From assembly GCF_004010195.1 (NCBI RefSeq), contig NC_057754.1, forward strand, positions 9,577,516 through 9,622,750: DNA of 45,235 bases. The letters run 5' to 3'. The translations under genes and the position numbers were made by a program. This document shows, one piece after another, positions 3,595 to 42,930 of the stretch. The notes under the pieces are model-generated. The model saw nothing but the letters and a program-made list of their open reading frames with translations. It ran no database searches and was not told where the DNA came from. Origin of the DNA: Chiloscyllium plagiosum (taxonomy: Eukaryota). Position 1 is the first letter of the stretch; each line of letters starts with the position of its first letter.

Positions 3595-4800
3595 TTGTGT
3601 TGTTTAAGAATTGCTCTTTCAGTCACTAAGAGTTTCCTGGGGGTGGAAGAAGTCACTTTGGGTGTTTTACAGAGAGTAAGCAATGCGAGGTTTTTGGAAT
3701 CAGCAAACATGCTGGAGTTGGGGCTGCCTATGTCTGTGAGGAAAGGGGAGATAATTCAGACAATCACACAGCATTTACAATTGCCAGAAATGCCATTAGA
3801 ATCTTGGGAATTGGCTAAAATTCAATTGCATGTGAAACAGTTTGAATTATGATTAAAAGCAGAGGGAAAAGGAAAGGAAAGGAAGGCCCGAGGAGAAGAA
3901 AGGGAGAAAGAAAGAGAAGAAAGGGAGAGAGAGAGAAGAAAGGGAGAAAGAAAGAGTTTTTAAGCTTCAGAGGTTGGAAATGAAAACTGAAAAGTCAACT
4001 TACATTGGTGGAGGCAGAGGTAAAAAGTAGGAGTGATGGGGACTGTGATGACTGTCATCGCCCCAAAGACCTGGTGAGGATCTTTTTAAATATGTCTAAA
4101 CTTGACGAGAAGGATGCAGAATCCTTTTTCATTCAATTTGAGAAAGTGGCTAAACAAATGAAATGGCTCGTGACCACGTGGGTATTGTTGATTCAAACGA
4201 AATTGGGTTGATCCAAACAAAATTGCATCACAATTTGAGAAAGTATTTAGGAAGTATAATGAGGTGTAAAGTTAGAGAGTTTTGAGAAGATTTGTAGCTC
4301 AGGTTGAGGTTCTGGATGTAGGTTTGCTCGCTGAGCTGGAAGGTTCATTTTCAGATGTTTCATCACCATACTAGGTAACATCTTCAGTGAGCCTCCGGAC
4401 AAAACTCCATCTTAAGTGCATATGAACTAGGACCAGAAGCCTATAACAATGTTCAAGAATCTAAGGAGGGACTCTGGTCAAATGTACATGGAGTTTGAAA
4501 GGATCAAACAAAGTAATTTTGATCAGTGGATAAGGGCACTGAAAATATATCATACATATAATGCTTTTATAGGGACAATTATTTTACAGGAGTTCAAAAA
4601 TTCACTTCCTGAAGTACAGAGAACTCATGTGGAAAAGCAGAGAGCTAAGACTGCAAGATTGGCAGTGGAAATGACGATGATTCTGACGTCAATTTTAATC
4701 TCAAAGGGATAAATACTGGGGAAAAGAGAAATCCTCAGGTGGTAAGGGAAAATGCGATCTCATTGAAGATAGTAAGGGCAGTTTACCACAGGGTAAAAAA
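3595..4800 (+). mobile_element. gag: Nested gag of a second Gypsy lineage (Gmr1-like, SCAN-related capsid), decayed
   Basis: E/R-rich coiled coil (3870-3955); LDEKDAESFFIQFEKVAKQMKW...WVLLIQTKLG; ILSAYEL.PEAY..FKNLRR...FDQWIR; LQEFKNSLPE. Confidence 0.7.
4276..4400 (-). mobile_element. Penelope terminal-repeat fragment (family B) with hammerhead motif
   Basis: Minus strand 4387-4354 reads CTGAAGA TGTTACC TAGTAT GGTGAT GAAA CATC. Homologous to 15190-15468 and 35045-35130. Confidence 0.8.
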
Positions 4801-4911
4801 AAAACAATTGACTTAACTGCAACGCTATCAAAATATTTAATAAAATAATAGATATATTCACTACTGCTAATTAACTACTCCAGTCTAGTAACATCCCATG
4901 AACATCCCATA

Positions 4912-5598
4912 GTTCCTTGAAAGTAGCGTTACAGGTAGATAGAATAGTGAAGGAGGCGTTTGGTATGCTTTCCTTTATTGGTCAGAATATTGAGTGTAGG
5001 AGTTGGGAGGTCACGTTGCAGCTGTACAGGATGTTGGTTAGGCCGCTTTTGGAATATTGTATGCAATTCTGGTCTCCTTCCTATCGGAAGGAAGTTGTGA
5101 AATTTGAAAGGGTTCAGAATAGATTTACAAGGATATTGGCAAGGTTGGAGGGTTTGAGCTACAGGGAGAAGCTGAATAAATTGGGGCTGTTTTCCCTGGA
5201 GCATCGGAGGCTGAGGGGTGACCTTAAAGAGATTTTGTCGAATCATGAGGGGCATAAATAGGATAAATAGACGAGTTCTTTTCCCGGGGTGTGGGAGTCC
5301 AGAACTAGAGGGCATAGGTTTAGGGTGAGAGGGGAAAGATATAAAAAAGATCTCAGGGTCAACCTTTTCACAGAGAGGGTGGTGCGTAATTGGAATGAGC
5401 TGCCAGAGGAAATGGTGGAGGCTGGTACAATTACAACATTTAAAAGGCATCTAGATGGATATATGAATAGGAAGGGTTTGGCTAGATATGGGCCAAGTGC
5501 TAACAAATGGGACTCAAGTAGGTTGGGATATCTGGTTGACATAGATAAGTTGGACCGAAGGGCCTGTTTCCGTGCGGTATGTCTCTGTGATTCTATAA
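4912..5598 (+). mobile_element. CR1 LINE 3' portion
   Basis: QLYRMLVRPLLEYCMQFWSPSYRK...LFSLEHRRLRGDL; tail GATTCTATA. Confidence 0.92.
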
Positions 5599-5789
5599 CA
5601 CCCCAGCAACTGCTATTAAAAAATTAAAATTAAAACTAAAAGTCCTGGCTCAGGGGAGTTTGATCCCATCCATTGAGGCTTCTTTTATTGTTCCAACCTC
5701 AGAAAAAACTTTTACTCTTTAGGTTATTGGATTCAAACAGACAGCTCTTCAAAAGAAAACAGGACAAAATACACCTCTGAAACCCATAG

Positions 5790-5975
5790 TATCATCATTG
5801 GAGCCAAGGACACCTTACATGTAAGCCAGGAAGCATTCCCATGATTCTGCAAGGCCTGCCCAATGCCATTTGCTTTCCATACAAAAGTAGAGGCAGAAAT
5901 CAGGAGGGTGGAAAGCAAAGAGATCATCAAACCAGTCCAATTTGTAGAATGGCAGCACCATTTGCACCTATGCTG
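5790..5975 (+). pseudogene. pol: Gypsy RT N-terminal remnant (resumes the Mag-like pol)
   Basis: FCKACPMPFAFHTKVEAEIRRVESKEIIKPVQFVEW(AAP). Confidence 0.75.
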
Positions 5976-6165
5976 ACAGGGTGATTTGGATCATTTCAAT
6001 GATTTTAATATTATCAAAATACTAAATTCAAATTTGATTGGATTGTGGTATCTTGGGGTATAATTTAAACTGATTGGTTAAATTTGAATTTGTTTTTATG
6101 CTCCATAGCAACACAGCTGTACTATTGGTTTCAACCAAGTGTTACATTGTTACCTTGTTCACTCT
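5976..6165 (-). repeat. LTR fragment related to the solo LTR at 36301-36989
   Basis: Shares TTGATTGGA...TAATTTAAACTGATTGG...AATTTGTTTTT...TGTTACATTGTTACC with 36790-36910. Confidence 0.6.
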
Positions 6166-6302
6166 GGGCACAAGAGGCGGGTTATGGTCCAGTACACACT
6201 GTTGAGGCTGAGTCAGAGGAACCGGATCCAGTGCAAAAATGCCTAGGAGAAGTGACAAGAAAAAGAATAACACCACGTTTGTGGGACTTAGAGGGGGAGG
6301 GA

Positions 6303-6527
6303 TACAGTGATTGTAGCTAGATCATCCATGTGTATTTCCTAGTAAATGAGTTCCATGATTGGGGCTGTTAACTCGGTCCAGTTAGGGAGCCCTGGCTGAC
6401 AGCTATATATGAGAGTGTCAGGATCTGAGAGTTGAGTCTGAGGGAGGCAGAACAGTGTCAAGCACGCTGAACACATAAATAAAGAGTGATTTGTTGATAG
6501 AATACTGGCGTCTGTGGTGTTATTTCA
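6303..6527 (+). repeat. 3' LTR of Mag-like Gypsy element
   Basis: Follows the PPT, contains AATAAA, ends TATTTCA, and is homologous to 92-295. Confidence 0.75.
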
Positions 6528-6639
6528 CCTTTAATAGCTCTCTTGCCTTCTCTCTCTAAGGAGAATAGCCTCAACTGCTTCAATCCATCCTCGTAACTGC
6601 TGTTCATCACCTCTGGAAGCCGAGACTGGGTTCAGTTCC

Positions 6640-7393: not shown

Positions 7394-8377
7394 AGTAAGA
7401 CTGTAAGAAATAGAAACAGGATTCCCCTACTGATCAAGAATGTACCTCAGTCCTAAATATACACAAAACGGTGGCCCCTGTGGCAAAGAGCTCCAAAGAT
7501 ACTCAACCTGCTGAGAGAAGAAGTTCCTCCTCATCTCAATCTTAAATTGGCAGCCATTAATTCTGAGACTGTACACTCTGGTCTTAGACCAGAGGTGAAA
7601 CATCGTTTCAGCATTAACCTGTCAAAATCTTCAGTCTCGTAAATGTCTTGCCTCTCATTCTTCTAAACTCCACTGAGTCAAGTCCCAACTTGTTCAACCT
7701 TTACTCATAAGAAAATCCCTCCTCACTGGGAATCATCCTAGTGAACCTTGTCTGGACCGCCTGCAATTAAAAAATATTTTTTCTTCAATAAGGGAACAAA
7801 AACTGCTCTCTGTTCTCCAGGTGTGATCTCACCAGCACCTTGTACAGTTACAAGACTTCGGTTGAAATAAGGGACAGCATTCCGTTAGCCTTCATGATTA
7901 CCGGCTGCACATTTGTGAGTGCTTTGTTTCATGCACAAGTCCCTCCAAGTCCATTTGTGTTGTTGTTTTCTGTAGGTCTTCACCATTTAAATAGTGCTGT
8001 TCTTTTGCGTTCCCTTCCAAAATGAACAACTTCACATTTTCCCACATTATAATCCATTTCCCAAATTTTTCCCCACTTAGGTTTAACCTATCAATAGCTC
8101 TCTGTAAATCATTTGTATTACTTTTGCGTTCGCCCTTTCTGGATGATTTTGTGTCATCTGCAAGTTTAGCCACAATATATTCACTTCCTTTCTCCAAGTC
8201 ATTAATCTATATTGTAAACAGTTGCAGTCCCAGCACTGAACCCTGTGGAACCTCACTGGCCACAGATCGCCTAAAACAAAATTCCTTAACCCTATTTGCT
8301 CTTTGTTGCCTGTTAACTAATTCTCTATCCATGCCAATATATTACCTCCAACACCATGGGCTCTTATGTTACGAATG

Positions 8378-8577
8378 AAAATAGAAATTGCTGGTAAAAC
8401 TCTGCAGGTCTGGCAGCATCTGTGGAGAGAAATCAAAGTTAACATTTCCAGTTCAGTGACTGTTCAGACTGAAGAACTGGACCAAAAACGTTAACTCTGC
8501 TTTCTTTCCACAGACCTGCTGAGTTTTCACAGCAATTTCTGTTTTTGTTTCTGATTTCCAGCATCCGCAGTTCTTTT
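8378..8577. mobile_element. Fold-back PLE terminal-repeat element (family C) with degenerate hammerhead
   Basis: Inverted arms AGAAATTGCTG...GCAGGTCTG...GTTAAC and GTTAAC...CAGACCTGC...CAGCAATTTCT. Centre TTCAG-A-CTGAA(GA) at 8463-8475. Confidence 0.8.
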
Positions 8578-8719
8578 AGGGTTTTTTTCATGACTTAACC
8601 GCTCGTGAAGTACTCTATCAAGCACCTTCTGGAAGTCCCAATACAATATAGCTACTGATTGATTTGGTGTCACGTGTATCCAAGAATAGTGAAAAGATTT
8701 GTTTATGATCAATACAGGC

Positions 8720-10350
8720 AGATCAGAGTAAGCAAGGAAGTACAAATCAAAAAGACTTAGAGACATACAAGTTCCATTGCACTAGGCAAGATCAACGTTA
8801 GCAAGATCAGCATTAGTTGAGGGTAGAGAGTCCATTCATCAGCCAGGAGGAAGCTGTTCCTGAACCTGCTGGTGCATGTGTTCAGGCTTCGGTATCTTCT
8901 GCCTGACAGAAGAGGTTGTAGGAGATTATTACTGGGGTGCTATGGATCCTTGATTATGTTGGCAGCCTTTCTGCGTCAGTGAGCCGTGTAAACGGAGTCC
9001 ATGGATGGAAGGTTGGCTTCTGTGATGGTCTGGGCTGTGCACATCACCTTGTGTAGTTTCTTATGGTCCGGGGCAGAGTAGTTGCCGTACCAGGCCACTA
9101 TGCACCCGGACCGTATGTTTTTAATGGTGCATCTGTGGAAGTTGTTGAGGGTTCTTATGGACGTGCCAAATTTCCTGAGCTGCCCAACAGGAGCCTTTGT
9201 GCCTTCTTGACCGTTGCATCTATGTGGCAAGTCCAGGACAGGTCCTTGGTTATTGTCTCTCCAAGGTCTTTACCTCTCAACCTCCATTCTGTTGATGTGT
9301 GTGCGGGCATGTTTTCCTCCTTTCTTTCTGAAGTCAATGATCAGTTCTTTAGTTTTGCTGATGTTGAGAGAGCAGTAATTCTCATTGCACTATCTCCCTC
9401 TATTTCCCTTCTGTATTTTGACTTATCATTGTTAGGCACCTGCCCTGTTACAATGGTGTTGTCAGCGAACTCGCACATAGCGTTCGTTCAGAATTTGGCA
9501 ATACAGTCGTGGGTATATAGGGAGTGCTGTAAGGGGCTGAGGTTGCATCCTTGGGGGGGGCTCCAATGTTGTGGAGGAGGTATAGTTACCCATGTTCACT
9601 GATTGCAGTCTGTGGGTCAGAAAGCTGAGGATCAAGTTGCAGAGGGCAGAACCGAGACCAGTCAGAGTTTTGAGATCAGTGGAGGAGATAATGGTGTTGA
9701 AGGCGGATCTCTAGCCAATGAGCAGGTGTTTAACATAGGTGTCCTTGTTGTCCAGGTGTTCCAGGGATGATTGTAGGGAGAGGGATACAGCATCTACTGT
9801 GGACCTGTTACATAAATAAGGAAATTGTAGGGGATCGAGACAGGCTGGGAGACTAGAGTTGATGTGGGCCGTGACCAGCCTCTCGAGATACTTCATGATT
9901 ATTGAGGTCAGAGTCACTGGCCAGTGGTCATTAAGGCATGCTGCATGTGCTTTCTTGGGTACGGAGATGATGGTGGTCTTCTCGAAGCAGGCGGGGACTT
10001 CGGCTTGTAGGAGGGAGGTTGAAGATGTCAGTGAATACCTCTACCAGCTGGTCCACACAGGATCTGAATGCTCGGCTGGGGGGTCCGTCGAGGCTTGTCC
10101 CTTTCCTTGGGTTGATTCCCAGGAAGACCGACCTGATGTCTGGTGACGGAGGGATACTGTGTCCGGTACTGTCGAGGCAGGCATCACCGCGCCGCTGGCA
10201 TTCTGCTGAAACCGAACATAGAAAGCACTGAGCACGTCAGGGAAGGATGTGTATTAGTCTGCTACCTTCCATGCTTCATTTTCTATCCCATACTGTTGTT
10301 TAGGCATTGCCATAGATGCCGGGAGTCTGTTTGGTAGGTATGGGCCTCTA
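8720..10350 (-). mobile_element. Rex1/Babar-type non-LTR retrotransposon, decayed
   Basis: TLTSIIMKYLERLV..HI..SLP..LDPLQF.Y..NRSTVDA...LEHLDNKDTYV; KDLSWTCHIDATVKKAQ; GCIVAWYGN.SA.D.KKL. Confidence 0.85.
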
Positions 10351-10359
10351 CCTTGGTCC

Positions 10360-11525
10360 AGTTCTCCAATCGGAGGTTGAACAATTCATCAGCTTCACCA
10401 ACACATTCCACCCTGACCTTAAATTCATCTGGAGCATCTCAGACACCTCCTTCCCCTTCCTAGACTTCTCCATCTCCATCAACGGTGACCGACTCAACGT
10501 TGACATTTTCTACCGACCCACCGACTCCCACAGTGACCTGGATTATACCTCCTCCCATCCTGACTACTGTAAAAATGCTATCTCGTATTCCCAATTCCTC
10601 CGCCTCCGCCACATCTGCTCCCAGGAGGACCTGTTCCACCACAGAACACACCAAATTGCCTCCTTCTTTAAAGACAGCAATTTCCCCTCCCACGTGGTTG
10701 ATGATGCCCTCCAGCGCATCTCTTCCACTTCCCACACCTCCGCCCTCGAAAACCACCCCTCCAAACGCAACAAGAACAGAACCCCCCGGTCCTCACNNNN
10801 NNNNNNNNNNNNNNNNNNNNNNNNNNNNNNNNNNNNNNNNNNNNNNNNNNNNNNNNNNNNNNNNNNNNNNNNNNNNNNNNNNNNNNNNNNNNNNNNNNNN
10901 NNNNNNNNNNNNNNNNNNNNNNNNNNNNNNNNNNNNNNNNNNNNNNNNNNNNNNNNNNNNNNNNNNNNNNNNNNNNNNNNNNNNNNNNNNNNNNNNNNNN
11001 NNNNNNNNNNNNNNNNNNNNNNNNNNNNNNNNNNNNNNNNNNNNNNNNNNNNNNNNNNNNNNNNNNNNNNNNNNNNNNNNNNNNNNNNNNNNNNNNNNNN
11101 NNNNNNNNNNNNNNNNNNNNNNNNNNNNNNNNNNNNNNNNNNNNNNNNNNNNNNNNNNNNNNNNNNNNNNNNNNNNNNNNNNNNNNNNNNNNNNNNNNNN
11201 NNNNNNNNNNNNNNNNNNNNNNNNNNNNNNNNNNNNNNNNNNNNNNNNNNNNNNNNNNNNNNNNNNNNNNNNNNNNNNNNNNNNNNNNNNNNNNNNNNNN
11301 NNNNNNACAATCCCACTCTTGGCTGCCTTTCCCCCCCCCTCCCAGGCCCACCACCGCCCCCTCCCCATTTATCTCTCTCCACCCCTGAGGCTCCCAGCGT
11401 CATGATGAAGGGCTTTTGCTCGAAATGTCGACTCTCCTGCTCCTTAGGTGCCTCCTAACCTGCTGTGCTTTCCAGCACCACACACTCGACTCTAATCTCC
11501 AGCATCTGCAGTCCTCGCTTTCACC
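10360..11525 (+). mobile_element. Penelope-like element: RT C-terminus, assembly gap, 3' terminal repeat with hammerhead-like motif (family A)
   Basis: FPFLDFSISI...DIFYRPTDSHSDLDYTSSHP..CKNAISYSQFLRLRHICS (PLE RT/thumb). 3' end has ATGATGA AGGGC TTTT GCTC GAAA TGTC (11402-11429) then ...CATCTGCAGTCCTCGCTTTCACC. Confidence 0.88.
10797..11306. other. Assembly gap (510 N)
   Basis: Run of N inside the Penelope element. Confidence 0.99.
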
Positions 11526-12656
11526 TTGGTCCAATACTGCCTCTTGGCATCCCTGATGGCTTTGCAGAGGTCTTATCTGGATTTCCTGTATTAGTCTGGA
11601 TCATTGTACTTGGTTCCCTTTTATTGACTCTGGCTAAAACTCTTGAAAAACTCTAATAAATTAGTCAGACACCATTTCCATTTCATGAAGCCAGGCTGAC
11701 TCTGATTAGATTTATGATTTTCCTGATGTTCAGCTTTTACTCTCTTAATAAATGATTCCAACACTTTGACGACAATAGAGGTTAGGATAATCCTCCTACA
11801 TTTGCCTGCTTTTTCCCTTTCTTGCTTTTGAATAGGAGCGTCACGTTGGGAATTTTCCAGTCCTCTGGTACTTCTCCAATGTCCAAGGATTTTTGGTTCA
11901 ATGCATCCGTTATTCCTAGCTACCACTATTAGGATCCTGGGATGCAAGTTAGGGAATAATTCACCATTAGCCCTATCAGTTTGTCTAATACTACTTCACT
12001 GGTGATTGTGATGGTACTTAATTTCTCCCCATAATCTTGAGCATTAATGGGATATTCAAAGTAGTTTCCATTGTAAAAACATCTGTTTAATTCCTCTGCC
12101 ATTTCTCTGTTCCCCATTGCTTTCTCTACCGATTCAGTTTCTAAGCGATCTTTGACCTTTCTCTTTCTTTTTGTATATTTAAAGTCTTGTCAGTTTTTAT
12201 ATTCCTCGCTAGTTTTCCCTCATAGTTTATTTTCTCACTTTTTATCATCTCAGTCCTCCTTTGCTGGTTTCTGATTTTATCCCAGTTTTCGGGGCTATCA
12301 CTGATGTTTTGCCTCCATATACACTTTTTTACTTTCAATTTGAATATTCTCCTTAATTTCCTTGGTGAGCCATGGTTGGATTCTCCCTCTCTCGGAATCT
12401 TTCCTCTTGTTTTTACCGAGAGTTTTAATGTCAATCACTGCTTGCTTACTGTCATTACGTTACAATTGACTACTGTATCTAACTCATTTCTTCACAATTC
12501 CCTTCAATTAAATTAAGGACAGTTGTCGTTGACCTAAGTTTCTTACTGTCAAACTGAAAATTAAATTCTATCATTTTATGATCGCAACTTTCTTAGAGAT
12601 CTTCTCTCCTAAGGTTGTTTATTAAGCCTGCCTCATTACCTATTACCAGATCCAAG

Positions 12657-12691
12657 ATAAAAATCACACAACACCATATTATAGTCCAACC
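12657..12691 (-). repeat. Short PLE family D terminal fragment
   Basis: TAAAAATCACACAACACCATATTATAGTCCAAC matches 39780-39812. Confidence 0.65.
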
Positions 12692-13684: not shown

Positions 13685-13974
13685 AATGTGAAATGGAGAG
13701 GATTGGAAATCTCAAAGATCTGACACAGTCAATCAATTAATTGAGTCTCGAAACTCATTGGCGTGGAATCGAGTGAAATGTCGATCAGTTCTGTTTGCTG
13801 CCAAAGGTTTTGAACATCAGACAGAATGGAAAGGCACCAAGGCATATGCATGAGGGTGAACTGACAGTGGAAAGAGAGTAGAAACATTTCTTACTGTTCA
13901 TAACGGGGAGAGACTGCACATGTGTTCTACCTCATGGACAAGGCTCTAACTGGTCATTCAACCTGAAAGGGCAC

Positions 13975-14748
13975 ATGGAGAACCTCAATATGGAGCGGCC
14001 ATGGAAATGTGCAGACTGTGGGAAAGGATTCAGATCCCCATCTAAGCTGGAGATTCATTGTCGCAGCCACACTGGGGAGAGACCATTCACCTGCTCCATG
14101 TGTGGCAAGGGCTTCACTGATTCATCCAACCTGCAGAAACATCAGCGACTTCACACAGGGGAGAGGCCGTTCAACTGCTCCGAGTGTGGAAAGGAATTCA
14201 CTTTGCTATCCAAGCTGCTGACCCACCAGCGAGTTCACACCCGGGAGAAACCTTTCACTTGCTCGGAGTGTGGGAGAGGATTCACTCAGTCATCCAACCT
14301 GCTGAAACACCAACAGGTCCATGCTGGGGACAAACCGTTCCCTTGCTCTGAGTGTGGGAAGGCGTTCACGCAGTTATCTCACCTGCTGACACACCAGAGG
14401 GTTCACACTCGGGAGAGACCGTTCATTTGTTCAGAGTGCAGGAAGGGATTCACTCAGTCATCCCACCTGCTGACCCACCAGCGGGTTCACACCAGGGAGA
14501 GGCCGTTCACTTGCTCTGTGTGCGGGAAGGGATTCAGTGACTCATCCAATCTGCAGAAACACCAGCGAGTTCACACCGGGGAGAGGCCATTTGTCTGCTT
14601 GGAGTGTGGGAAGGGATTCACTCAGTTATCCCACTTGCAGACGCATCAGCGGGTTCACACCAAACAGAGACCATTTACCTGCTCTGTGTGTAGGCAGAGG
14701 TTCACTGATTCCTCCAACCTGGAGATACACCAGCGAGATCACAAGTAG
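13975..14748 (+). CDS. Tandem C2H2 zinc-finger protein, 9 fingers, 257 aa, no effector domain seen
   Basis: Open ORF with nine CxxC-x12-HxxxH units and TGERPF-type linkers; ATG context CACATGG; acceptor upstream and AATAAA downstream. Confidence 0.93.
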
Positions 14749-15013: not shown

Positions 15014-15189
15014 TACATTTGCATCTGCTTCATAGAGTCTATAGCACAGGACCAAGCCAATTGGCTGAATTGGTCCATGCGAGTCCCCACCCTCCCCTTA
15101 TCATACTCCCCAAAAAATACCCCAACAACATACCCTTCTAATACTTTCTCCTTTATGAATGTATCCATTTCCCTGTAAAAGAATCCATG

Positions 15190-15468
15190 TGAGTTTTGAG
15201 AAGATTTGTAGCTCAGCTTGAGGTTTGGGACGTAGGTTTGCTCACTGAGTTGGAAGGTTTGTTTTCCAACGTTTTGTCACCATACTGGGTAACACCAGTG
15301 AGCCTCCGGTGAAGTGCTGGTATTTAACATGAGAAAACCCAAACACGTGACTAGAAAGCTGGCCACTAACACCAGTGCTTCACCGGAGGCTCACTGATGA
15401 TGTTACCTAGTATGGTGACGAAACGTCTGAAACTGAACCTTCCAGCTCAGCGAACAAACTTACATCCC
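15190..15468. mobile_element. Fold-back PLE element (family B) with 9-bp TSD
   Basis: Inverted arms ~15228-15321 and 15371-15467. GAATCCATG duplicated at 15181-15189 and 15469-15477. Confidence 0.88.
15385..15443 (+). ncRNA. Minimal type I hammerhead ribozyme motif, core intact
   Basis: TCA-CTGATGA(15394-15400)-T-GTTACC/TAGTAT/GGTGAC-GAAA-CGTC(15427)-TGA. Stem I TCA/TGA can extend via GGAGG/CCTTCC. Confidence 0.75.
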
Positions 15469-15930
15469 GAATCCATGCTGTTCAACTCAAGCACTCATGG
15501 TAGCAAGTGCCATATTCTCACCACTTGCTAGGCTAAGAGTTTTTTTTTTAAATGAAATCTTATTGGTTTATTGAAGCCTTTCATCATCATGAAATGTTCC
15601 ATCTGGTCACCCTTCACTCCTCTCTCTGTTAGAGCAAAGCCTCTCCTGAGGGTGAAATGCTCTCGGTTCTGATATTCTGTTGAATCTTCTCCAATGCCTC
15701 TATTTCCTTTCTCTAAATGGAGATCATGGATGGGGACAGTGGAGTTTACTTGTGGTTTGGAATTAATTGAACAGAACCTCCCCCATTTCTGAACTTCTCG
15801 CCCTGTGAAAAGGAGACCCACGTGGGGTTGTGCAAGGCTCATGGAACGTTGGTCCCTTGTTTCAAGGGGGTCGAGTTTTTTTTTGTTTTTCTTAATTTAT
15901 TCATGCAACATGGGATTTGCTGGCTGGGGT

Positions 15931-16160
15931 AGAAAACGAGGACTGCAGACGCTGGAGATCAGAGTCGAGAAGGTGTTGCTGGAAAAAAACAGCATCCCGG
16001 AAGCAGGAAAATTGACGTTTCGGGCCTAAGCCCTTCATCAGGAATGAGGCTGGCTGGTCGGCCAAAGGCGCTGAGAGATATATGGGAGGGGATGGGGCTT
16101 GAGGGAAGGTAACTGAGAATGCGATAGGGGGAGGAAGGTGAGGGAAAAAATGATAAGTGG
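15931..16160 (-). mobile_element. Penelope 3' terminal repeat (family A) with intact hammerhead core
   Basis: Minus strand 16041-16014: CTGATGA AGGGC TTAG GCCC GAAA CGTC. Homologous to 11330-11525. Confidence 0.85.
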
Positions 16161-17924: not shown

Positions 17925-18613
17925 TGTTGGGGATGGCAGTAAATTGAGCAGTGGGTGACTTGCTCCTAGCGGTCCAATTTAGAAATACCGCGTCACACAA
18001 GCCTTGAGTATTGACAGGTTTATTTGAGATTCTGGATCAGTGGTGCTGGAAGAGCACAGCAATTCAGGCAGCATCCGAGGACAGGCAAAATCGACGTTTT
18101 GGGCAAAAGCCCTTCCCGAAATGTCGATTTTGCCTGTCCTCGGATGCTGCCTGAATTGCTGTGCTCTTCCAGCACCACTGATCCAGAATCTGGTTTCCAG
18201 CATCTGCAGTCATTGTTTTTACCAGGTTTATTTGAGAGTTCATGGGGAAAGACGAGGCGACCGAATAGCCGCAAGTCACTCCGAGATACAAAGAATCGCG
18301 TAATTATATAGGTTACAATCGTTTAGCAATTAGCAAACTGTTAATTGCAGGATAATGAGCAAGATGGCATCTTGCCCAGTCATTAGCTTCAGTCATGTAA
18401 TGTCTGGACAGTGTCAGTTAGTAGCTGACAAGCAGATGTTAGTAGACAATAGGTCCATGCAAAGGTATCAGTACAGCGGCAAGGCCAACCATCTTAGCTG
18501 GGCATGAGAAACACAAGATTTTAGCAGTCAGGCATGAAGATGGGATTCAAAATGGTTTCCAGGCTCTTAATATGTGACAAAATGGCTGCCATGAATCTCT
18601 CAATTCTCCCACA
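17925..18613 (-). mobile_element. Solo LTR (ERV/Gypsy-type)
   Basis: TGTTGGGGA...TCTCCCACA termini, (A)CAG on both sides, interrupts a CR1. On the minus strand, TATATAA (~18304-18310) precedes AATAAA. Confidence 0.65.
18027..18222. mobile_element. Young fold-back PLE element (family A variant): perfect 69-bp inverted arms, 15-bp TSD
   Basis: 18027-18095 is the exact reverse complement of 18123-18191. CAGGTTTATTTGAGA occurs at 18015-18029 and 18223-18237. Confidence 0.93.
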
Positions 18614-19114: not shown

Positions 19115-19716
19115 CAATGGGGGGGATTATCTCATTCAAGATTCTTTTCTGTCAAAAAAGTGGACCTCAACTTAAAACATAGACAGAATCAAAGCAGGAC
19201 CTCACACCTAAAATGCATTCTCTAACCTGAGGTACCACCTATTGTACATTGATAAAACCTTTAATTATCGGTGGACAAAGACTTGAAAGTAATTTGCATT
19301 TTAATCAAGCAGGAGGTTGGAGGAACACAGCAAGCTAGGCAGCATCAGGAGATGGAGAAGTTGACATTTCTTCAGGAATGCTCCCCCTATCCCCACCTCC
19401 TGAAGAAGGATTATACCCAAAATGTCGACTTCTCCACCTCCTGATGCTGCCTGGCTTGCTGTGTTCCTCCAGCTCCCTGCTTGTCTACTTTGGATTCCAG
19501 CATCTTCTGTTTTTTTAAAACTTTAATTTTGCATTTTAATCAGCAGTCTGCTTCCTAACGATTAAAGGATTCAACTTTTAAAGTTGTTAACTTTTTGCTT
19601 ATCAATATTGTGTCTTATGTTTCCCTATCATACCATACCTGAGGACGGAGCAGAGCTCCGAAAGCTTGCAATTTCAAATAAACCCGTTGGACTATAACCT
19701 GGTGTTGTTGGTTTTT
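19115..19716 (+). mobile_element. Penelope family D 3' region with hammerhead motif (5' boundary uncertain)
   Basis: CTGAGGA C GGAGC AGA GCTCC GAAA GCTT (19639-19667) followed by CAAATAAACCCGTTGGACTATAACCTGGTGTTGT, which matches 39753-39942. Confidence 0.7.
19308..19527. mobile_element. Fold-back PLE element with 15-bp TSD nested in the family D element
   Basis: Arms 19308-19370 and 19420-19482. TTTGCATTTTAATCA at 19293-19307 and 19528-19542. Degenerate core CTGAAGA...ACCC-AAAA-TGTC at 19400-19426. Confidence 0.85.
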
Positions 19717-21579: not shown

Positions 21580-22420
21580 ATGGAATCATACAGCACGTTA
21601 GAGGCCCTTCAGCCCATCGAGTCCTGCCGACCTATCTACACTAATCCCACTTTCCAGCACTTGGCCTATGCCCTTAACTGTTATTGCATTTTCAAGTACT
21701 TGTGTATTTTTGTAAAAAGTTTGTAAGGTTTCCCATCCTAACTAGGAGATAGTGAGGACTGGAGATGCTGGAGAAGTCAGAATCGATAAAAGTGTGGTGC
21801 TGGAAAAATCACAAATGTCGATTGTTGCTCCTCAGTTACTTCCATCTTAACTACCCTCCCAGGCAATACGTTCAAAATTCCCAGCATATTCACTGAGTTC
21901 CCCCTCAAACCCTCTCCAGACCTCCTGCCATTCACCTTTAACATTAACATTATGCTATTGACTCTTCAACTAAGGAGAATAGCTGCTTTCAATGTATTCT
22001 GTCTGTGGCTCTCATCTTATACACCTTAATCAGGTTCCCACCCCGCCCCAATCTTCTTTGCTTCAAAGAAAGCTACCCAGGTTTATCTAGCCTCTCTTCA
22101 TTGCAGAAGTGCTCCATCCCAGGTCATGTCTTGGTGAATCTGAATCTCCAGTACACTCACATCCTCCCTGTAATGAGGAGACAAGAACTGCACACAGTAC
22201 TCCAGCTATGGCCTAACATAATCTCCCTGCTGTGATAATCTATGCTGTGCTGTCCTGTATGCTGCCGTAACTACCCTGTTAGCCTGAACTACCACCCTCC
22301 TTTTGAGCTTTCTGGTGTCCTGCTATTCAGTGACTCCTTTATCTTGACACTTCTTCCAAAGTGCATCACCTCACTGTTTCAGCGACAAACTACATCTATC
22401 AGTGATTTGCCATTATGAAC
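21580..22420 (-). mobile_element. Old CR1 3' fragment
   Basis: GAATCATACAGCAC..AGAGGCCCTTCAGCCCATCGAGTC...AGAACTGCACACAGTACTCCAGCT.TGGCCTAAC. Confidence 0.7.
21745..21836. mobile_element. Short family A PLE terminus with partial inversion and degenerate TSD
   Basis: AGTGAGGACTGGAGATGCTGGAGA...GTGGTGCTGGAAAA then AAATGTCGATT..TGCTCCTC. Flanks TTCCCATCCTAACTA and TTCCATCTTAACTA. Confidence 0.7.
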
Positions 22421-22745: not shown

Positions 22746-23178
22746 AAGGATACCTGGACTGCAGAGAATGGATTATGAGGAAAGGTTTAACACTGATCAT
22801 TGAGTCAGTGTGGCACATGCTGCATGCAGTCCATCAAGTTCAGTCTGGCTCTCTGTGAAGCAATACACACTCGAGTGCCTACCCTGATTAGCTTTTATAA
22901 ATTATTGATCACTTTCACTCACCACTGTCTTACACAGTGTGTTCTGGGTATTATCAATCACTACATAAATAAAGTGTGTGCTTCCCTGTATAACTTTTTC
23001 AAAACTTTTTTTTGGCGTATGTACCTTCAGCTAATTGAAACAATGTTTCCTTTTGTATACCTTTTCTAAACCTGTCGACACCTTTTACACCTCAATCAAA
23101 TCTTCCCTCAAGTTCTTTGCTTCAGCTCTAAACTTCTCCAAACCAACCATTTGACTAAATTCCCTTATTGTAGAACCA

Positions 23179-23337
23179 GGAGAAAGTGAGGACTGCAAAT
23201 GCTGGAGATCAGAGCCGAGAGCGTAGTGCTGGAAAAACACAGCAGGTCAGACAGCATCCGAGGAGCAGGAGGATCGACATTTCGGGCATAAGCGGGCTGA
23301 TGCCCAAAACGTTCAATTCTCCTCCTTCTCAGATGCG
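23179..23337. mobile_element. Family A PLE terminus with short inversion and 13-bp TSD
   Basis: TATTGTAGAACCA at 23166-23178 and 23338-23350. Junction TTTCGGGCATAAGC|GGGCTGATGCCCAAAACG. Confidence 0.88.
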
Positions 23338-26612: not shown

Positions 26613-28321
26613 AATTGAAATCCCCTAGTATAATTATCTGATTATTACTCTTACGCACCCCTATGAACGATCTGCATATTTGCTCCTTTATTTCCTGCTG
26701 ATTCTTTGGAGACCTATAACGCACTTCCTAGTAAAATGGCTGCTCCCTTAATATTCCTAAGTTCTACCTTCAGAATCTCATTTGAGGACACTTCCAAGAT
26801 ACCATCTCTCCTTATTGCAGTAACTGACTCCTTAATCAATTATGATACTCCACCACCCTTTTTACACCCTCCTCTGTCTCACCGAAAGATCCTATTCCCT
26901 GGCATGTTAAAGTGCCAGTCCTGCCCTTCCCTCAGCCATGATTCTGTGATTGCAGCATCATACTTCCATGTGCCGATCCATGCCATTGACTTGTCCATCC
27001 ATTACACTTCCAGCTACACCACATTAAAGTAGACCATCTTTCCTTGCCATACTCTCTTGACACTTAGCATAGCTGAACTCCTTGTGATTTGCTTCCTTTG
27101 TTGTGTGTCCTTTGTGTGTCTCTGTTTCATTGATTCTGTATCCCCTCCTCGTGCCAGTCTTGAGGAGGTGAACTCCTCCTAACAGCACGAGCAAACCTAC
27201 CTGCAAGGCTGTTGATTCAGATGCAGACCGAAGTCCAGTTTGTGCATGTCCCACCTTCCCCAAAACAGTCCCGGTGATCCAGGAACCTAAGACCCTCCCT
27301 CTTGCACCAACTGTTGAGTTACGCATTCATCTGTCCTATTTACCTCTTTCTATACCGCTAGCACAAGGGAGTAATCCGGAGATTATGACCATTGAGGTCT
27401 TGATTTTTAATTTTCTGCCTAGCTCTGAGTTCTTGCTGCAAGACCTCATTTCCCCATTTTGCCCATGTTATGGTACCAAAATGTATCATGACTTCTCACC
27501 CTCCACCCTCCCCTTTCAGGATGCCCGACAGGCCATTCAGTGACATCCCTGACCCTGGCACCAAGGGAGGCAATGCATCTTTCTGGAGTCACGTCCTTGT
27601 CTGCAGGTACACCTGTCTGCTCCCTATTAAAGAATCCCCTGTCAAGGTAGCTCTTTCTCCCCCACCCCTCCCACCATATAGTTGAGCTGCTTATGGTGTC
27701 AGAAGCTTTGAAACTGGAATATTGGTTAGTGAGAGGAGCCCCGGGAGACTCCTGAACTACCTGCCTGTTCTTTCTGGAAAGTTATTTCGCCCATTCCCTT
27801 CTTTCCTTGTGGATGCACCCAGTGTCTCCAGTTGGTGAGACCCAGAGCTTCAGCTTCTGCAGCTGGGAGCACATCCTGCACGCATGATCATCTAGGACGC
27901 TGGCAGCATCACATTAGACAAGCGACACATTCCACTCAGTTGGCCTCTCCTGACATCTCTTAACTTAAAATCAATGCCTTAGACGAGAACTATTAGACAT
28001 CCGACTCCATCGCTAAAGTTAACTAACTATGATCTCACTGCTCTAAATCTGTACGATAAGAAAGGGTTAACTGTTAGGGGCCCAGTACTCTCCAATCCAG
28101 AGCCTTTCTTACCTTTTTGAAGTTGTAATGTCAGCAGGATTCACATTGAAGATTCTCGCCATGTTCCTGCAGCTTATCGGTCACCATGTCCCTCTCCACC
28201 ACTGCCTCTGGAAGCTAAGGGCCTTGTAAAGACTAGGCCCGAATCCGCACTAGATTTATAGGCTGATTCATGGTCACTTTATCGTCATGCCAACTCCACA
28301 AATGACCGGGTTCATTCAGCT

Positions 28322-28451
28322 AGGAAAAAGTGAGGACTGCAGATGCTGGAGATCAGAGCTTAAAAATGTGTTGCTGGAAAAGCGCAGCAGGTCAGGCAGC
28401 ATCAAAGGAGCAGGAGAATCGACATTTCGGGCATAAGAAGGGCATAAGCCT
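28322..28451 (-). mobile_element. Family A PLE terminus with 14-bp TSD, ending in hammerhead stem II
   Basis: GGGTTCATTCAGCT at 28308-28321 and 28452-28465. The insert ends TTTCGGGCATAAG-AAGGGCATAAGCCT. Confidence 0.88.
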
Positions 28452-28570
28452 GGGTTCATTCAGCTCCAGTTCACAGCCTCGGTGAGTTATTTGTTGCTCT
28501 GTTTTCTCCTGTTTTAAATCAATTTTACAGGAAAAGATTTAAAGTGGGAGGATTCAAAGCGCATTCTCTG

Positions 28571-35032: not shown

Positions 35033-35044
35033 GGACTCTTTATG

Positions 35045-35528
35045 GTGTAGGTTTGCTCGCTGAGCTGTAGGTTTGATATCCAGACCTTTCATTACCTGAC
35101 TAGGTAACATCATCAGTGGCAACCTCCAAGTGAAGTGAACCTGTTGACTCCTGCTTTCTATTTATATGTTTGTCCTGGATGGGGTTCCTGGGGTTTGTGG
35201 TGATGTCATTTCCTGTTCGTTTTCTGAGGGGTTGATAGATGGCATCTAGATCTATGTGTTTGTTTATGGCGTTGTGATTGGAGTGCCAGGCCTCTAGGAA
35301 TTCTCTGGCATGTCTTTGCTTAACCTGTCCCAGGATAGATATGTTGTCCCAGTCGAAATGGTGGGGTTTTTTTCCCCCGTGTGTAGGACTACGAGGGAGA
35401 GAGGGTCGTGTCTTCTTGTGACTACCTGGTGTTCGTGTATCCTGGTGGCTAACTTTCTTTCCGTTTGTCCTACATAGTGTTTGTGGCAGTCCTTGCGTGG
35501 AATTTTGTAGACGGGACTCTTGTTGTTT
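35045..35528 (-). mobile_element. Penelope element family B: GIY-YIG endonuclease plus terminal repeat with hammerhead
   Basis: VYKIPRKDCHKHYVGQTERKLATRIHEH...HHFDWDNISILGQ...REFLEAWHS...INKH. Minus 35116-35083: CTGATGA TGTTACC TAGTCA GGTAAT GAAA GGTC. Confidence 0.9.
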
Positions 35529-35559
35529 CCCTCACCACCTGCTGCAGACTCAGTCTAGC

Positions 35560-36989: not shown

Positions 36990-37020
36990 CATGACAAGAT
37001 CATTCACTGGGGTTTCTCAT

Positions 37021-37069
37021 TGGATGCTGCCTGACCTGCTGCGCTTTTCCAGCAACACATTTTCAGCTC
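37021..37069 (+). repeat. Tiny family A PLE fragment
   Basis: GGATGCTGCCTGACCTGCTGCGCTTTTCCAGCAACACATTTT is the reverse complement of 28364-28403; TTTCTCA on both flanks. Confidence 0.75.
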
Positions 37070-37400: not shown

Positions 37401-39752
37401 CAGTTCTGTTTATGTTCAGGATTGATAGCCTGATAATATAGCGCTTTGATTTTTCCGCTTCATTCAAGAACTCTCAACAGGTTATAGTTTACGGTAAAAT
37501 TATGAACTTTGACTCCAGTCCTAAATTGATCTTTGAAAAAAAATGTACAATTCATTGATTTGAAAGGTTTCACTAAATAAAATTAAATGAGAAATTAATT
37601 CTGTCTGATACTTGTCACCGATTTCCCATTTGCCCGAGTGTACACACAGTGTGCATCATGAAATTAACTTATCAAGGAATGTGAAGCAGAATTGGTATTG
37701 GTGAAGTTTGGAAGTCGTCGAGTTGAATCATTTCTGACCCAGCAACAGCAACATGAAGTAGAGATGAAACCCACAACAAAGACAACCAACTCGCTGGAGG
37801 TGACGTTTTTCATTGAAATGAAAAGTAAGGGGTGACCTGATGCACAACATCAGCAAGAATAACCTGAAAATAGCTGAGACAGTTGCGCAAATAAAGGAGC
37901 CTGTCAAGAAATATCAGCTGTCTGTGACAATGGAAATCTGTGCTCTGACGGTGCCTCCCGAGAGTGCCCTCGGACTCTGTTGGGAGTGCTGGCTGGTCTG
38001 TTGTATACCAGCTCCCTGGTTTTGACACTGGGCTTATGTAGTGAAATGTTGTTTGATGAAAAGCACAGGAGGCAGATGCTTCAGTGGCAAAAGAAACTCT
38101 GATTAAAACAAGCAAAAGTGAAAATATGTACAATATGAAAGAAAATGAATATTTCAAAAAAAAAACCCAATGTTCAAGTCAAGTGAGACTTATCTGATGC
38201 CTAACTAGCACCCCAGTTTAAAATTACAAAGAGCTGTTAATCACTGGGTGATATGGGAAAGGAAAGAGAGATCGACAAAATACTAATCCTGGGGTCCTAT
38301 CTTGCTTCCCTTCCCCTGGGATGCCCTGCACCATCGGCCACAAAGCCTACCCTTCCTACACCATCTGAGCTGGGACAGAGGGTTTCGATGTCCTTATGCT
38401 TACCCCCCTGAAGTAGCTTCTGTTGGCTTGGACGGTGGTGGATGTCACTGGCACTGCCCCAGTTGGTATCTCTGCTCTCTGGTTACTTCTTGGAGGTTTG
38501 TGGATAAGAAAATCATTTGCTCTCTTTTCCTGAGTCTGTGACTCACGGCGACTGGCTGTGTCTGATTCTCTGGACTCTGGCCAAACCTCTCACTGAATCC
38601 AACCCTCCGATCTCTAAGGAGTTATTGCCCAGTTATACTGACTGTCGGTTCCCTGATCTCGAAATCTGGGTTTGATGAGTGAGCTGTTGTTCCTCCTCTG
38701 AGGGCTGAATGATTCTCCTGATTATTAGAGAGGTGTGAATGGTTCTCCAATAAAAATGTTTACGATTGTTTTGGATGTCTATCTTTCTCTTGGATGGACG
38801 CAGGTTAAAGTTTTACTGTTAAGTGCAAGGCCTTCACATTCAAAGACAAACAGGTTTGTATGTGGTACAATGACGTGGAATGTTCAGTATCTCTGTGTCT
38901 GAGTAAAGTGATTACAAGTTGAATGGGTTTGTGTTTTTATGGGTCCCAGCATGTCTCAGTGGTTTGCTCTGCAGGCTGGTGTTTCATTATGTTTAGCTGA
39001 GGTGTTGTGGGGGGGGTCTTCCTTACTCTTGACAAGCTAAACCCTTGTTCCAGACAGCTGGCTTGCATATTGCCTGCTCTGTCTCAGCCATAGAGCTCCG
39101 TGAGTCTTCGTTCAAATGTGAATTCCGCAAACTCTTGTCCCAAGTTCAGAGGGTTTTAGTCCAGGGTATCTGATGGGGATTTCAGCCTTACAACACCAAA
39201 GTTCCCAGATGCGGTTGGGAGGTGGTAAATTCTTCACTGACTGAAATAAACAGCAGTCTCGCTGGATTAAGCATAACTTTGAGCGATACCACCATTTCAG
39301 AAACATCTTCTTGTCTCAGTTTGATTATCTCCAATGACTCCTGTCATGGTTAAGTTGGACAAGGAACACTGACAGTTGAAAAAGCCATTAGTTGCCTACT
39401 AAGTAGAAAGAGCACCAGCAACAAGGGACTTGCCCTAAACTGCTGACGCATGGAAACCCCTAGCTACTACCACAGCTTCATGTTCTCTTCTGGGAAGTCA
39501 GATCCCCCATTGTATTAGCCACAAAGATTTACATAAAACAAGGTGCCTGTGGGGATTGCAATAGCTGCAAGGGCATTTCACTCAGCATCATGGGAAAAAT
39601 CTTCATTCAGGTCATGATTAACTGGCTCCATCCACTTGCACAGTGAGTGTTGCCAAGAAGCACAGATCCTGTGCTAGTAGATCAACATTGGACAGGATCC
39701 CCTCCAGTTGGCAGCTAGAATAAAAGAAGCAGGATATACTTTTGTCGATCTC

Positions 39753-39942
39753 GATTTGGAGGAGCTGGGGTGGACAAAGTTAAAATTCACACAACACCAG
39801 GTTATAGTCCGACAGGTTTATTTGGAAGTGCTAACTTTTGGAACGCTGCTCCTTCATCAGGTGGTGAAAGCAGTGCTTCGAAAGCCTGTGCCTCCAAATA
39901 AACCTTTCGGATTGTAACCCTGGTGTTGTGTGATTTTTAACA
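39753..39942. mobile_element. Fold-back PLE element (family D) with 11-bp TSD
   Basis: Arms GTTAAAATTCACACAACACCAGG... and ...CCTGGTGTTGTGTGATTTTTAAC. TTGTCGATCTC (39742-39752) and TTGTAGATCTC (39943-39953). Minus core CTGATGA AGGAGC AGC GTTCC AAAA at 39860-39836. Confidence 0.85.
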
Positions 39943-40007
39943 TTGTAGATCTCAGGAGAGCATTCAAGAATATCAGCAAGGCAGGATTTGACAAGGTTTT
40001 CGGGAAG

Positions 40008-40110
40008 TTCTGAAGAAGGGTCACTGGATCTGAAATGTTAACTCTGACTTCTTCTCCATTGATGCTGCCAGACCTGCTGAGACTCTCCAGCAATTTCTGC
40101 TTTGGTTTTG
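40008..40110 (+). mobile_element. PLE family C terminus with hammerhead motif
   Basis: CTGAAGA AGGGTC ACTG GATCT GAAA TGTTA (40010-40040); downstream sequence matches 8490-8560. Confidence 0.8.
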
Positions 40111-40319
40111 GGGAGTTGTCTGTGTACCAAAGCTCCTCAGTCTGATCCATTCCTTTGCTCTGTATTGAATACTGTGACAGCTTCACTTCCAAGTTTCAAG
40201 GTGAAGAATAGAATGGAACAGAGACCAATACCATTGCTGGATAGATATGAGTAATAAAGACTTCCCTCAGGGAAATTTCCTGACTGATGGAATAGGCAAC
40301 TGGTTAGTAACATTATAAG

Positions 40320-40975: not shown

Positions 40976-40979
40976 TGTC

Positions 40980-41385
40980 TGGTTGGCACCGACATGAGAC
41001 TCAATGGTCTGTAATTTCCTGGTTCATCGCTAACACCTTTCTGGAAAAGTGGAAACGCATTAGCCTTCCCGCAGTCCTCTAGCACTTTCCCCGTGACCAG
41101 ACAGGAATTAAACATGTGTCAAAGCCCCTGCAATTTCTTGCATTGCAACCAGCCCCTGTCTCCCCCGGGATGCAATTCACCTGGACCACAGGAGATTTGT
41201 CCATTTTTAAGCCTGACAAAACCTCCCCATTTCCTATGTCAAACTGTGCAAGTTCCTCACAGTCCCTTTTCTTTAACTCTGCAACAGAATTCTCCTTTTC
41301 CAGAGTGAAAACTGAACAGAAGCAATCATTTAACACTGTTCCAATATCCTGCAGCTTCATACACGGTTTGCCCCCTTTCTCGCGA
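40980..41385 (-). mobile_element. CR1 ORF2 internal fragment
   Basis: LNDCFCSVFT.E; KANAFPLFQKG..DEPGNYRPLSL. Confidence 0.8.
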
Positions 41386-41499
41386 TCAGAGACTGATGAG
41401 TTAAAGGAGGGGACTGACACATGCTGTAGCTATCACAGAACAATGATTAAGGGAAGGGTTGGTCTGGAAGGTCAATATTCCAGGCTATGGAATCATTAG

Positions 41500-42478
41500 G
41501 CAAGATAGCGGAGGAAAATTGATCAGGGTGCTTAGATTTAAGGGAAGGAGCAGAAGGATTAGAAAAGCTGGGAGGCAAGTTGTTTCACCCAGAGGATGGT
41601 GGGAAGCTGGAACTCAGATCATGGAAACAGACCCTTTAGTCCAACCAGTCCATGCCGACCATGTTTCGAGACTAGGACCCATGGGCACAGCCTTAGAGGA
41701 GGTCAATTTAGAACAGAAATGAGGAGACATTTCTTCAGCCAGAGAGTGATAGGCCTGTGGAATTCATTGCCATGGAGCGCAGTGGAGGCAGGGACATTGG
41801 GTGTCTTCAAGGCAGAGATTGATAAATTCTTGATCTCACAAAGAATTAAGGGCTATGGGGAGGGTGCAGGTAAATGGAATTAAAATGCCCATCAGCCATG
41901 ATTAAATGGTGGAGTGGACTTGATGGGTTGAACGGCCTTGCGTCCACTCCTATGTCTTATGGTCTTATGGTTTCCAAACTGAACTGCTCTCACCTGCCTA
42001 CACCTGGCCCATTTCCCTCCAAACCTTTCCTATTGATGAACTTATCCAAATGTCTTTTTAATATTTTAACTGTGCCTTCATCCATCCCTTTCACTGGCAA
42101 TTCATCCCACACACAGACCTGTGTAAAAGAGTTGCCCCCATGCCCTTGTTAAATCTATCTCCTCTCACCTTAAAAATATGCTCCAGGGGAAAAGACCCCT
42201 GTCATTCACCTTATCTATACCCCTCATGATTCTATAAACCTAAAAAAAAGTCACCCCTCAACCTCCTACACTCCAGTCTTTCAGTCTATTTTTGTATCTC
42301 AATCCCTCCATTCCTGATAAAGCTTTGATGAACCCTCTCCAGTTTAATAACATCCTTCCTATAACAGAGCAATGAGAACTGCACACAGTATTCCAGAAGA
42401 GGCCTGTACAACCTCAACACGATGTCCCAATTCCTATACGCAAAGGTCTGAGCAGTGAAGACAAGCATGCTAAACTCA
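41500..42478. mobile_element. Interleaved CR1 3' ends (+ 41500-41615; + 41665-41970; - 41617-41665 and 41971-42478)
   Basis: FRTEMRRHFFSQRVIGLWNSLP with tail TCTTATGGTCTTATGG; minus-strand LYRPLLEYCVQF. Confidence 0.8.
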
Positions 42479-42481
42479 CAC

Positions 42482-42930
42482 GGAGGAAGTGAGAACTGCA
42501 GATGCTGTAGATCAGAGTCGAGAGTGTGGTGCTGGAAAATCACAGCACCCCAGGAGCAGGAGAATCGACATTTCGGGCTTAAGTCCTTCATCAGGAATGA
42601 GGCTTGTGAGCCAAGGGAGTGGAGAGGTAAATGGGAGGGGGGGATGCGGCTGGGGGGAAGATAACTGAGAATGTGATCGGTAGATGGAGGTCGGGGTCAT
42701 GGTGATTGGTCAGAGAGAAGGGTGGAGTGGATAGGTGGGAAGGAAGATGGACAGATAGGACAGGTCGTGAGAGCGGTGTCAAGTTGGAAGGTTGGAACTG
42801 GGATAAGGTGGTGGGAGGGGGAATGAGGAAACTGGTGAAGTCCACATTGATCCCGTGTGGTTGCAGGGTCCCAAGGCAGAAGTTGAAGGGTTCTTCCTCC
42901 AGACGTCAGGTGGTCAGGGTGTGGTGACCA
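42482..42930 (-). mobile_element. Penelope family A: endonuclease C-terminus plus terminal repeat with hammerhead
   Basis: RLEEEPFNFCLGTLQPHGINVDFTSF. Minus 42594-42567: CTGATGA AGGAC TTAA GCCC GAAA TGTC. Confidence 0.88.

Follow-up and report, generated by a model that had tools for sequence, protein, structure and literature searches.

Minimal hammerhead ribozymes in the terminal repeats of Penelope-like elements (PLEs), their scattered solo copies, and insertions with an inverted arm, a tail, and a target duplication are already published (PMC4209133, PMC8557442, PMC11167929), and the role of the hammerhead and the origin of the inverted insertions are both posed as open questions in the parts of two of these papers that are drawn on here (PMC8557442, PMC11167929). 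A stretch of 45,235 nucleotides from the shark Chiloscyllium plagiosum (positions 9577516-9622750 of NC_057754.1, part of a 3.56-Gb assembly; hereafter the window), analyzed together with a sample of the same genome, bears on both. Its dispersed motifs are very probably what they are predicted to be, namely, minimal hammerheads of type I, carried by the terminal repeats of four or more PLE families, and the short units that carry them are in all likelihood abortive insertions copied from the elements' own RNA. The least expected result is that the 5′ ends of the copies from three of these families pile up at helix I of the hammerhead and not at its cut site, a position that likely marks where RNA copying stops.

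The minimal hammerheads of metazoan PLEs (Cervera and de la Pena 2014, PMC4209133), as presented in the sections of that survey used here, are matched by the shark motifs in their type I layout, the unpaired base between positions 9 and 10.1, the G10.1-C11.1 pair, the palindromic 15.2-16.2 segment, and a U3-A8 variant of the core, as well as in the presence of several consensus families in one genome, the predominance of solo copies left by truncated PLEs, and close opposite-strand pairs. The same sections give maxima, by the survey's own descriptor, of ~4,000 motifs in the coelacanth and ~9,000 in Xenopus, whereas about 270,000-310,000 intact motifs are extrapolated here with a different descriptor; they include no shark and do not map the positions of 5′ ends. 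The Poseidon element PAc of Anolis carolinensis (Frangieh et al. 2024, PMC11167929) resembles the family termed B below, in which the ATG likewise lies at stem II and the frame is open through the tail. In contrast to PAc, families A, C, and D appear to be of Neptune type, and family A has its ATG beyond the tail; the portions of the PAc account considered here describe no stop at the 5′ edge of the hammerhead. Complex insertions of endonuclease-positive (EN+) PLEs, so far as these are covered by the cited parts of PMC8557442, PMC3846280, and PMC2377424, share head-to-head arms, a one-sided tail, target duplications, and partial tandems with the shark copies, but the commonest product here has both arms cut to ~80-140 nt and no open reading frame (ORF). 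Nonlong-terminal-repeat (non-LTR) retrozymes, in the portion of the report at hand (10.64898/2026.07.22.740005), are similarly noncoding, derived from PLE ends, equipped with a type I hammerhead, and present in many solo copies, but are defined by head-to-tail tandem units that each hold a complete hammerhead, of which the shark sample contains none. No account of shark PLE hammerheads was found in the literature, Repbase and Dfam lying outside the comparison. As a ribozyme or as an element type, the shark copies are not new.

Anatomy and end positions of the copies

The genome sample comprises 120 stretches, each 10 kb long and placed at a round-number position on one of 38 large contigs, small contigs being left out. 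Within 1,163,170 called bases, 395 ends were counted (A 196, C 89, D 87, B 23), a density of 3.29 ± 0.22 ends per 10 kb (1 per 2.9 kb) that extrapolates to about 1.2 million ends in the genome. A preliminary description of the window, made from its letters alone, had put the frequency at about one unit per 3 kb, mostly ORF-less, and the sampled stretches bear this out. The core is covered by 262 of the 395 ends, and 92 hold an intact motif that passes the descriptor. With a strict descriptor (CUGAnGA, a bulge of 0-1, a stem II of at least 4 pairs, GAAA, and UH), the first 60 stretches yielded 51 matches, compared to 0-3 in five shuffles, and reversed decoys of these stretches and of the window yielded none. 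The median length of the sampled ends is 117 nt, and only 35 of the 395 reach the upstream edge of the model. Three loci (L127, L128, and L129, C12) share ~92% identity across 1.5 kb or more surrounding the same stubs, and represent a segmental duplication younger than the insertions.

The ends form a short and a tailed class, ~30-40 nt apart. Among 87 tight head-to-head pairs, 72 combine one short with one tailed arm, where about half would be expected of independent arms, and 41 are flanked by a direct repeat of 10-19 nt, compared to 4.5% in shuffled pairings. From the asymmetric arms and the target duplications, it follows that one pair is one insertion; the commonest product is an ORF-less, hairpin-like insert of 200-250 bp in which both arms are cut short. 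Both ends were called in 86 pairs, with 81 distinct junctions among them; flanks are unshared, and the fixed ends and common junction of a short interspersed element (SINE) or a miniature inverted-repeat transposable element (MITE) were not found. Regular head-to-tail arrays are absent from the 395 sampled ends, rare arrays elsewhere in the genome being possible, and the 23 same-strand neighbors within 1 kb are irregularly spaced. Unique junctions and the lack of arrays together indicate independent products, not copies of a fixed mini-element. Of the two origins offered in the preliminary description, abortive insertion therefore stands, and a non-autonomous population does not, given mostly unique junctions and no tandem arrays. 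An inverted-arm remnant is retained in 15 solo copies. At L202:5045-5850 (-), an inverted short arm is followed by a repeat that runs ~430 nt into the ORF start and by a second repeat starting at -8, the whole flanked by probable 12-bp target duplications; this partial tandem looks like a template jump.

With positions counted from C3 of the hammerhead core (0), 162 of 349 copies of families A, C, and D have their 5′ ends within -14..+5 (A 97/212, C 28/57, D 37/80). The hazard there is 0.049 per nt against a background of 0.006 (8.3-fold), and returns to the background level further upstream. Exact walks place the mode at -4 in A and D and at -2 in C, which corresponds to the 5′ strand of helix I. 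Around the cleavage site of the same three families, the bin +26..+35 contains 17 ends (hazard 0.005), no excess over its neighbors; cleaved RNA is thus not a favored template, and the ribozyme's front edge is where copying tends to end in three families of different sequence. Since the flanks upstream of the 5′ ends are not common to the copies, remnant arms aside, an unmodeled subfamily fails to explain the pile-up. Of 21 inspected loci (from a set of 30) that include the ORF start, 8 reach the core, 4 stopping at -8..0 and 4 running on.

A spliced template was considered and rejected, as family A and the main D subfamily lack a pyrimidine tract and AG, and the junction flanks lack a shared first exon. 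As a separate observation, family C and subfamilies E and F (both of the A/C group) carry just upstream of the core a pyrimidine tract and an AG that ends at helix I (e.g., L085, L125, L131), resembling a 3′ splice site and the intron end of the Drosophila virilis PLE. Transcripts were found in one poly(A) single-cell RNA run from a related or the same organism, with 1,482 reads from both strands, and a second run gave 0. The first shows no pile of molecule ends, which its library type is unable to reveal; 97% of the reads that were aligned continue into unrelated sequence, and a large pile of loose ends at -4 coincides with a site of subfamily divergence, which confounds it, and is not used as evidence.

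Coding links and ribozyme fold

By their links to coding sequence, families A, B, C, and D are identified as the 3′ terminal repeats of EN+ PLEs, with A, C, and D assigned to the Neptune type and B to the Poseidon type. These links bear out the minimal PLE hammerheads of the preliminary description, which had joined A and B to reverse transcriptase (RT) or GIY-YIG coding sequence and had placed C and D among PLEs by architecture only. In family A, the hammerhead lies downstream on the same strand in 26 of 30 RT loci, of which one is the window itself and two overlap. One caution applies: the RT-to-hammerhead join at 10316-11529 of the window spans a 510-base assembly gap (10797-11306), and is backed by the other loci, not by the window alone. 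At the family A locus L181, a 725-aa frame encodes an RT followed by a C-terminal GIY-YIG domain (RVT_1 E 2.8e-6, GIY-YIG E 6.5e-4, both matches below the Pfam cut-off), an order also seen across the RT loci. At all 30 GIY-YIG loci, the family B hammerhead comes after the coding sequence, at a distance of ~180 nt in 28. Among long copies, 5 of 13 in family C and 6 of 25 in family D have now been found to follow same-strand GIY-YIG sequence within 1.3 kb; because family D has a long 3′ untranslated region (UTR) with (CA)n repeats, its coding sequence may lie beyond the 1.3-kb reach in some copies.

Between RT and endonuclease, a CX2-5CxxC zinc-finger-like linker occurs in the translations of A, C, and, in decayed form, D; such a linker is common to Neptune and Nematis in the consulted part of PMC8557442, and does not separate the two. 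Family B is without this linker zinc finger, as read in the DNA of L169 and L152-L180. The family A repeat runs past the tail into the ORF, the first in-frame ATG being ~165-175 nt downstream of C3, and partial tandems in which the terminal repeat continues into the ORF start (L202, L243, L272-L290) are confined to this family. Assembly gaps lie inside long PLE copies, in the window (10797-11306) and at many loci, often between inverted arms; long copies are therefore probably under-assembled.

The ribozyme fold recurs in copies that were grouped without reference to it. When clustered solely on the sequence from +36 onward, with clusters of at least 4 copies kept, 13 of 14 clusters have a majority sequence with the complete fold, the exception being one small decayed cluster. 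The subfamily majority lines contain the core, the bulge before 10.1, stem II, a palindromic stem III, UH, and stem I; the last has a mismatch in most A subfamilies, and stem III is a 4-nt palindrome in all families. Pairing was assessed in 43 real copies of the alignable A/C/E/F group (39 chosen by downstream similarity and 4 from the window, 2 picked copies cut within the core being left out). In these, 89% of cells are paired, as opposed to 20-45% with slid partners, and two-sided changes occur at two pairs of stem I, two pairs of stem II, and the core pair C3-G8, which becomes U3-A8. The number of pairs with a two-sided change is not beyond shuffles (126/500), and kinship among copies inflates the other pairing measures. 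Covariation is real inside the alignable A/C/E/F group; the claim made at the outset, that the differing stem II sequences of B, D, and A represent covariation, is too strong, as these families are not alignable. Subfamily F of the A/C group, with 4 copies in the first 100 sampled stretches and none in the window, combines the U3-A8 core with a covarying stem I of its own (L085:4817-4874 (+), L096, L223, L228, L010, L012); the same core swap is published for Schistosoma in the cited portion of PMC4209133.

After insertion, the copies appear neutral. G12 is changed in 25 of 109 A copies (23%) and 19 of 51 D copies (37%), nearly always from G to A at CpG, a decay that resembles that of neighboring CpG sites. 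Protein coding was rejected as the reason for conservation of the motif, for the frame is open across the A hammerhead and closed in C and D. With 92 of 395 ends intact, G12 decaying as CpG, and the features already published, the expression "ribozyme system" of the preliminary description overstates the case.

Motifs and other features of the window

All 11 hammerhead motifs first reported in the window were recovered at their coordinates and strands, and 6 satisfy the strict descriptor (4387-, 15394+, 16041-, 19639+, 35116-, 40010+). Dinucleotide shuffles of the window (n = 100) gave a mean of 0.14 matches and a maximum of 2, which, along with the reversed decoys, rules out a chance origin. 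The remaining 5 are decayed: GAAA is gone and stem II broken at 8469 and 19400, C3 is altered at 11402, G12 is altered at 39860, and 42594 has a mismatch within stem II. The copy at 15394 alone is undamaged throughout core, stem II, palindromic stem III, and a 3-bp stem I. Profile searches added ten same-family ends that were missing from the original list, comprising those at 12652, 18006-18229 (a pair), 21744, 23166, 28320, and 37016 and the inverted partner arms at 8366, 15174, 19306, and 39856, and bringing the window to ~17 insertion sites per 44.7 kb (Table 1). Monomer folding, here an uninformative test, produced the catalytic fold in none of the window copies, and no head-to-tail retrozyme arrays were seen in the window.

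Table 1. PLE-derived features of the window, in window coordinates (strand "." for head-to-head pairs)
Feature	Position	Strand	Remarks
Family B (Poseidon-type, predicted) terminal stub, tailed	4276..4398	-	Hammerhead 4387-4354; stem III palindrome decayed
Family C head-to-head pair	8366..8589	.	Short minus arm and tailed plus arm; hammerhead 8469 decayed; no evident target duplication
Family A Neptune-type (predicted) element, 5′-truncated	10316..11529	+	RT C-terminal part 10316-10795; assembly gap 10797-11306
Terminal repeat of the element 10316..11529		+	Decayed hammerhead 11402-11429, then tail
Family D fragment	12652..12690	-	Only the part downstream of the hammerhead; 15.9 bits
Family B head-to-head pair	15181..15477	.	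Plus arm hammerhead 15394-15427 intact; 9-bp direct repeat at 15181 and 15469
Family A stub	15932..16158	-	Upstream terminal repeat kept over ~105 nt; hammerhead 16041-16014 with its first stem I pair broken
Family A head-to-head pair	18015..18237	.	Cut within core; target duplication of 15 bp (18015, 18223)
Subfamily E (A/C group) head-to-head pair	19293..19542	.	Hammerhead 19400-19426, decayed; target duplication of 15 bp (19293, 19528)
Family D short stub	19634..19715	+	Start ~ -5; hammerhead 19639-19667
Family A tail-only fragment	21744..21813	-	
Family A stub, tailed	23166..23293	-	Truncated within stem II
Family A stub, tailed	28320..28437	-	Truncated within stem II
Family B element, 5′-truncated	35040..35554	-	Frameshifted GIY-YIG coding sequence, then hammerhead 35116-35083, short end
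Family A fragment	37016..37060	+	Downstream of cleavage site
Family D head-to-head pair	39747..39953	.	Hammerhead 39860-39832, G12 altered; 6-bp direct repeat at 39747 and 39948
Family C stub	40004..40105	+	Start ~ -4 to -6; hammerhead 40010-40039
Family A element, 5′-truncated	42480..42930	-	GIY-YIG end, 3′ UTR, hammerhead 42594-42567 with stem II mismatch, tail

An Rfam search of the window returned no hammerhead match at E up to 5. It returned a microRNA (miRNA) match at 18060-18157, which is the family A hairpin pair (35.8 bits vs 100), and two U6 matches within sequence of long interspersed nuclear elements (LINEs), all far below the gathering score. Pairs of the 18060-18157 type form long hairpins, which annotation might mistake for miRNAs or MITEs, or which might serve as double-stranded RNA substrates. 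The window further contains two long single-exon arrays of C2H2 zinc fingers, at 13882-14748 (+) with ~9 fingers and at 28448-29734 (+) with ~12, and LINE fragments at many sites over 1122-44988, which we take to be CR1-like, with a near-identical local duplication at 30386-31921. Two decayed frames seem to resemble another non-LTR RT (8976-10253, -) and an LTR-retrotransposon gag (3984-4712, +).

A candidate mechanism and its rivals

The biochemistry of PAc, as given in the relevant part of the published account, suggests how such inserts may form: both target strands are cut and extended, reverse transcription starts at two internal sites that define the tail, the RNA used is uncleaved, and the hammerhead cuts only with protein (PMC11167929). 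By analogy, the shark PLE proteins would cut both target strands and prime one complementary DNA (cDNA) from each. If one cDNA started at the short site and the other at the tail site of uncleaved RNA, a short-plus-tailed pair with a target duplication would result; both cDNAs would usually end after 80-140 nt, on reaching the hammerhead's front edge, and would then be joined head to head. What halts them there may be the 5′ limit of the template RNA, or else an obstacle formed by bound protein or by RNA structure. An internal promoter in the upstream repeat, as the cited part of PMC2377424 describes for the D. virilis PLE, fits the former. The ribozyme is likely under selection only in the source elements, since subfamilies defined by downstream sequence keep the fold and pairing with two-sided changes; there, cleavage would take place in dimeric form or with the aid of protein, and copies, once inserted, likely decay neutrally.

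Several points weigh against this account of the copies. The 5′ ends were called against references chosen by downstream similarity, and, as ends of local alignments, are accurate to within a few bases; for want of a close reference, 48 of 105 C copies and 16 of 228 A copies were left out of the set. Family B has no significant pile-up (3/19). A capped start site at the front edge is not supported, as the 5′ junctions show no cap-derived G (z 1.0, -0.6, -0.05). Most solo copies show no target duplication, which is present in 20 of 143 (1.5% when shuffled). No intact full-length element was recovered among the loci examined, owing to assembly gaps. Finally, non-CpG core positions of A copies are changed in 3.0%, compared to a downstream mean of 7.6% that includes subfamily-variable sites, the best downstream block being as constant as the core.

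The second arm could arise in another way, by fold-back self-priming of a single cDNA (or from an antisense template) at the small core hairpin, in which case the pile-up would mark where fold-back is possible. Self-priming has been proposed for inverted PLE junctions in the cited part of PMC3846280, the two arms are more alike than average (in 22 of 80 pairs, the partner ranks in the top 5% of copies in its family), and several A junctions pair a start at +6..+9 with one at -1..-10. However, solo and ORF-bearing copies have both end classes and the same 5′ pile-up, the partner is not the closest copy in 66 of the 80 pairs, junction offsets are widely spread, and PAc in vitro, in the portion of the account used here, extends both target strands from two start sites (PMC11167929). 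Fold-back self-priming is a fair rival for the second arm, though on balance a rather doubtful one.

Two further proposals treat the short units as more than by-products. Their very high copy number and preferred unit size would suit a non-autonomous family, SINE-like or a non-LTR retrozyme, that is transcribed, self-cleaves, perhaps circularizes, and is re-inserted by PLE protein; parts of two reports, respectively, describe retrozymes derived from PLE ends, among them those of one chondrichthyan (10.64898/2026.07.22.740005), and PLE ends able to mobilize other sequence in trans (PMC3846280). This is improbable in the face of junctions that are unique, a sample devoid of regular head-to-tail arrays, no end excess at the cleavage site, and stub sequences that match subfamilies also having ORF-linked copies. 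Still harder to credit is a host-used system of dispersed ribozymes that cleave or regulate host transcripts. The ~270,000 intact motifs (by extrapolation), RNA reads from both strands, and the slightly greater constancy of A core positions over downstream ones speak for it, but the catalytic G12 decays at the CpG rate, and helix III is only a 4-nt palindrome, monomers of which kind are uncleaved in vitro according to the consulted parts of PMC4209133 and PMC11167929. Moreover, within a pair, base pairing to its own antisense arm may trap each motif in a long hairpin, and the RNA reads run into unrelated sequence, as would those of passengers in host transcripts.

For the abortive insertions favored here, a more specific version can be offered tentatively, with the odds against it: in Neptune-type elements, the 5′ strand of helix I may be the physical 5′ boundary of the copied RNA, so that a PLE protein priming at the first start site of its own transcript would make one cDNA per target strand that resembles a strong stop. 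If true, the hammerhead would act during insertion as a boundary or binding element, not as a cutter, and the roughly one million two-armed stubs would preserve, as fossils do, a map of where PLE copying is primed and where it terminates. Intact motifs are ~30 times as numerous as in the richest genome in the cited part of PMC4209133, and because there are about 1.2 million ends in several families, end positions can be counted with high power. The value of this shark genome lies in a very large set of footprints for the mechanism of PLEs.

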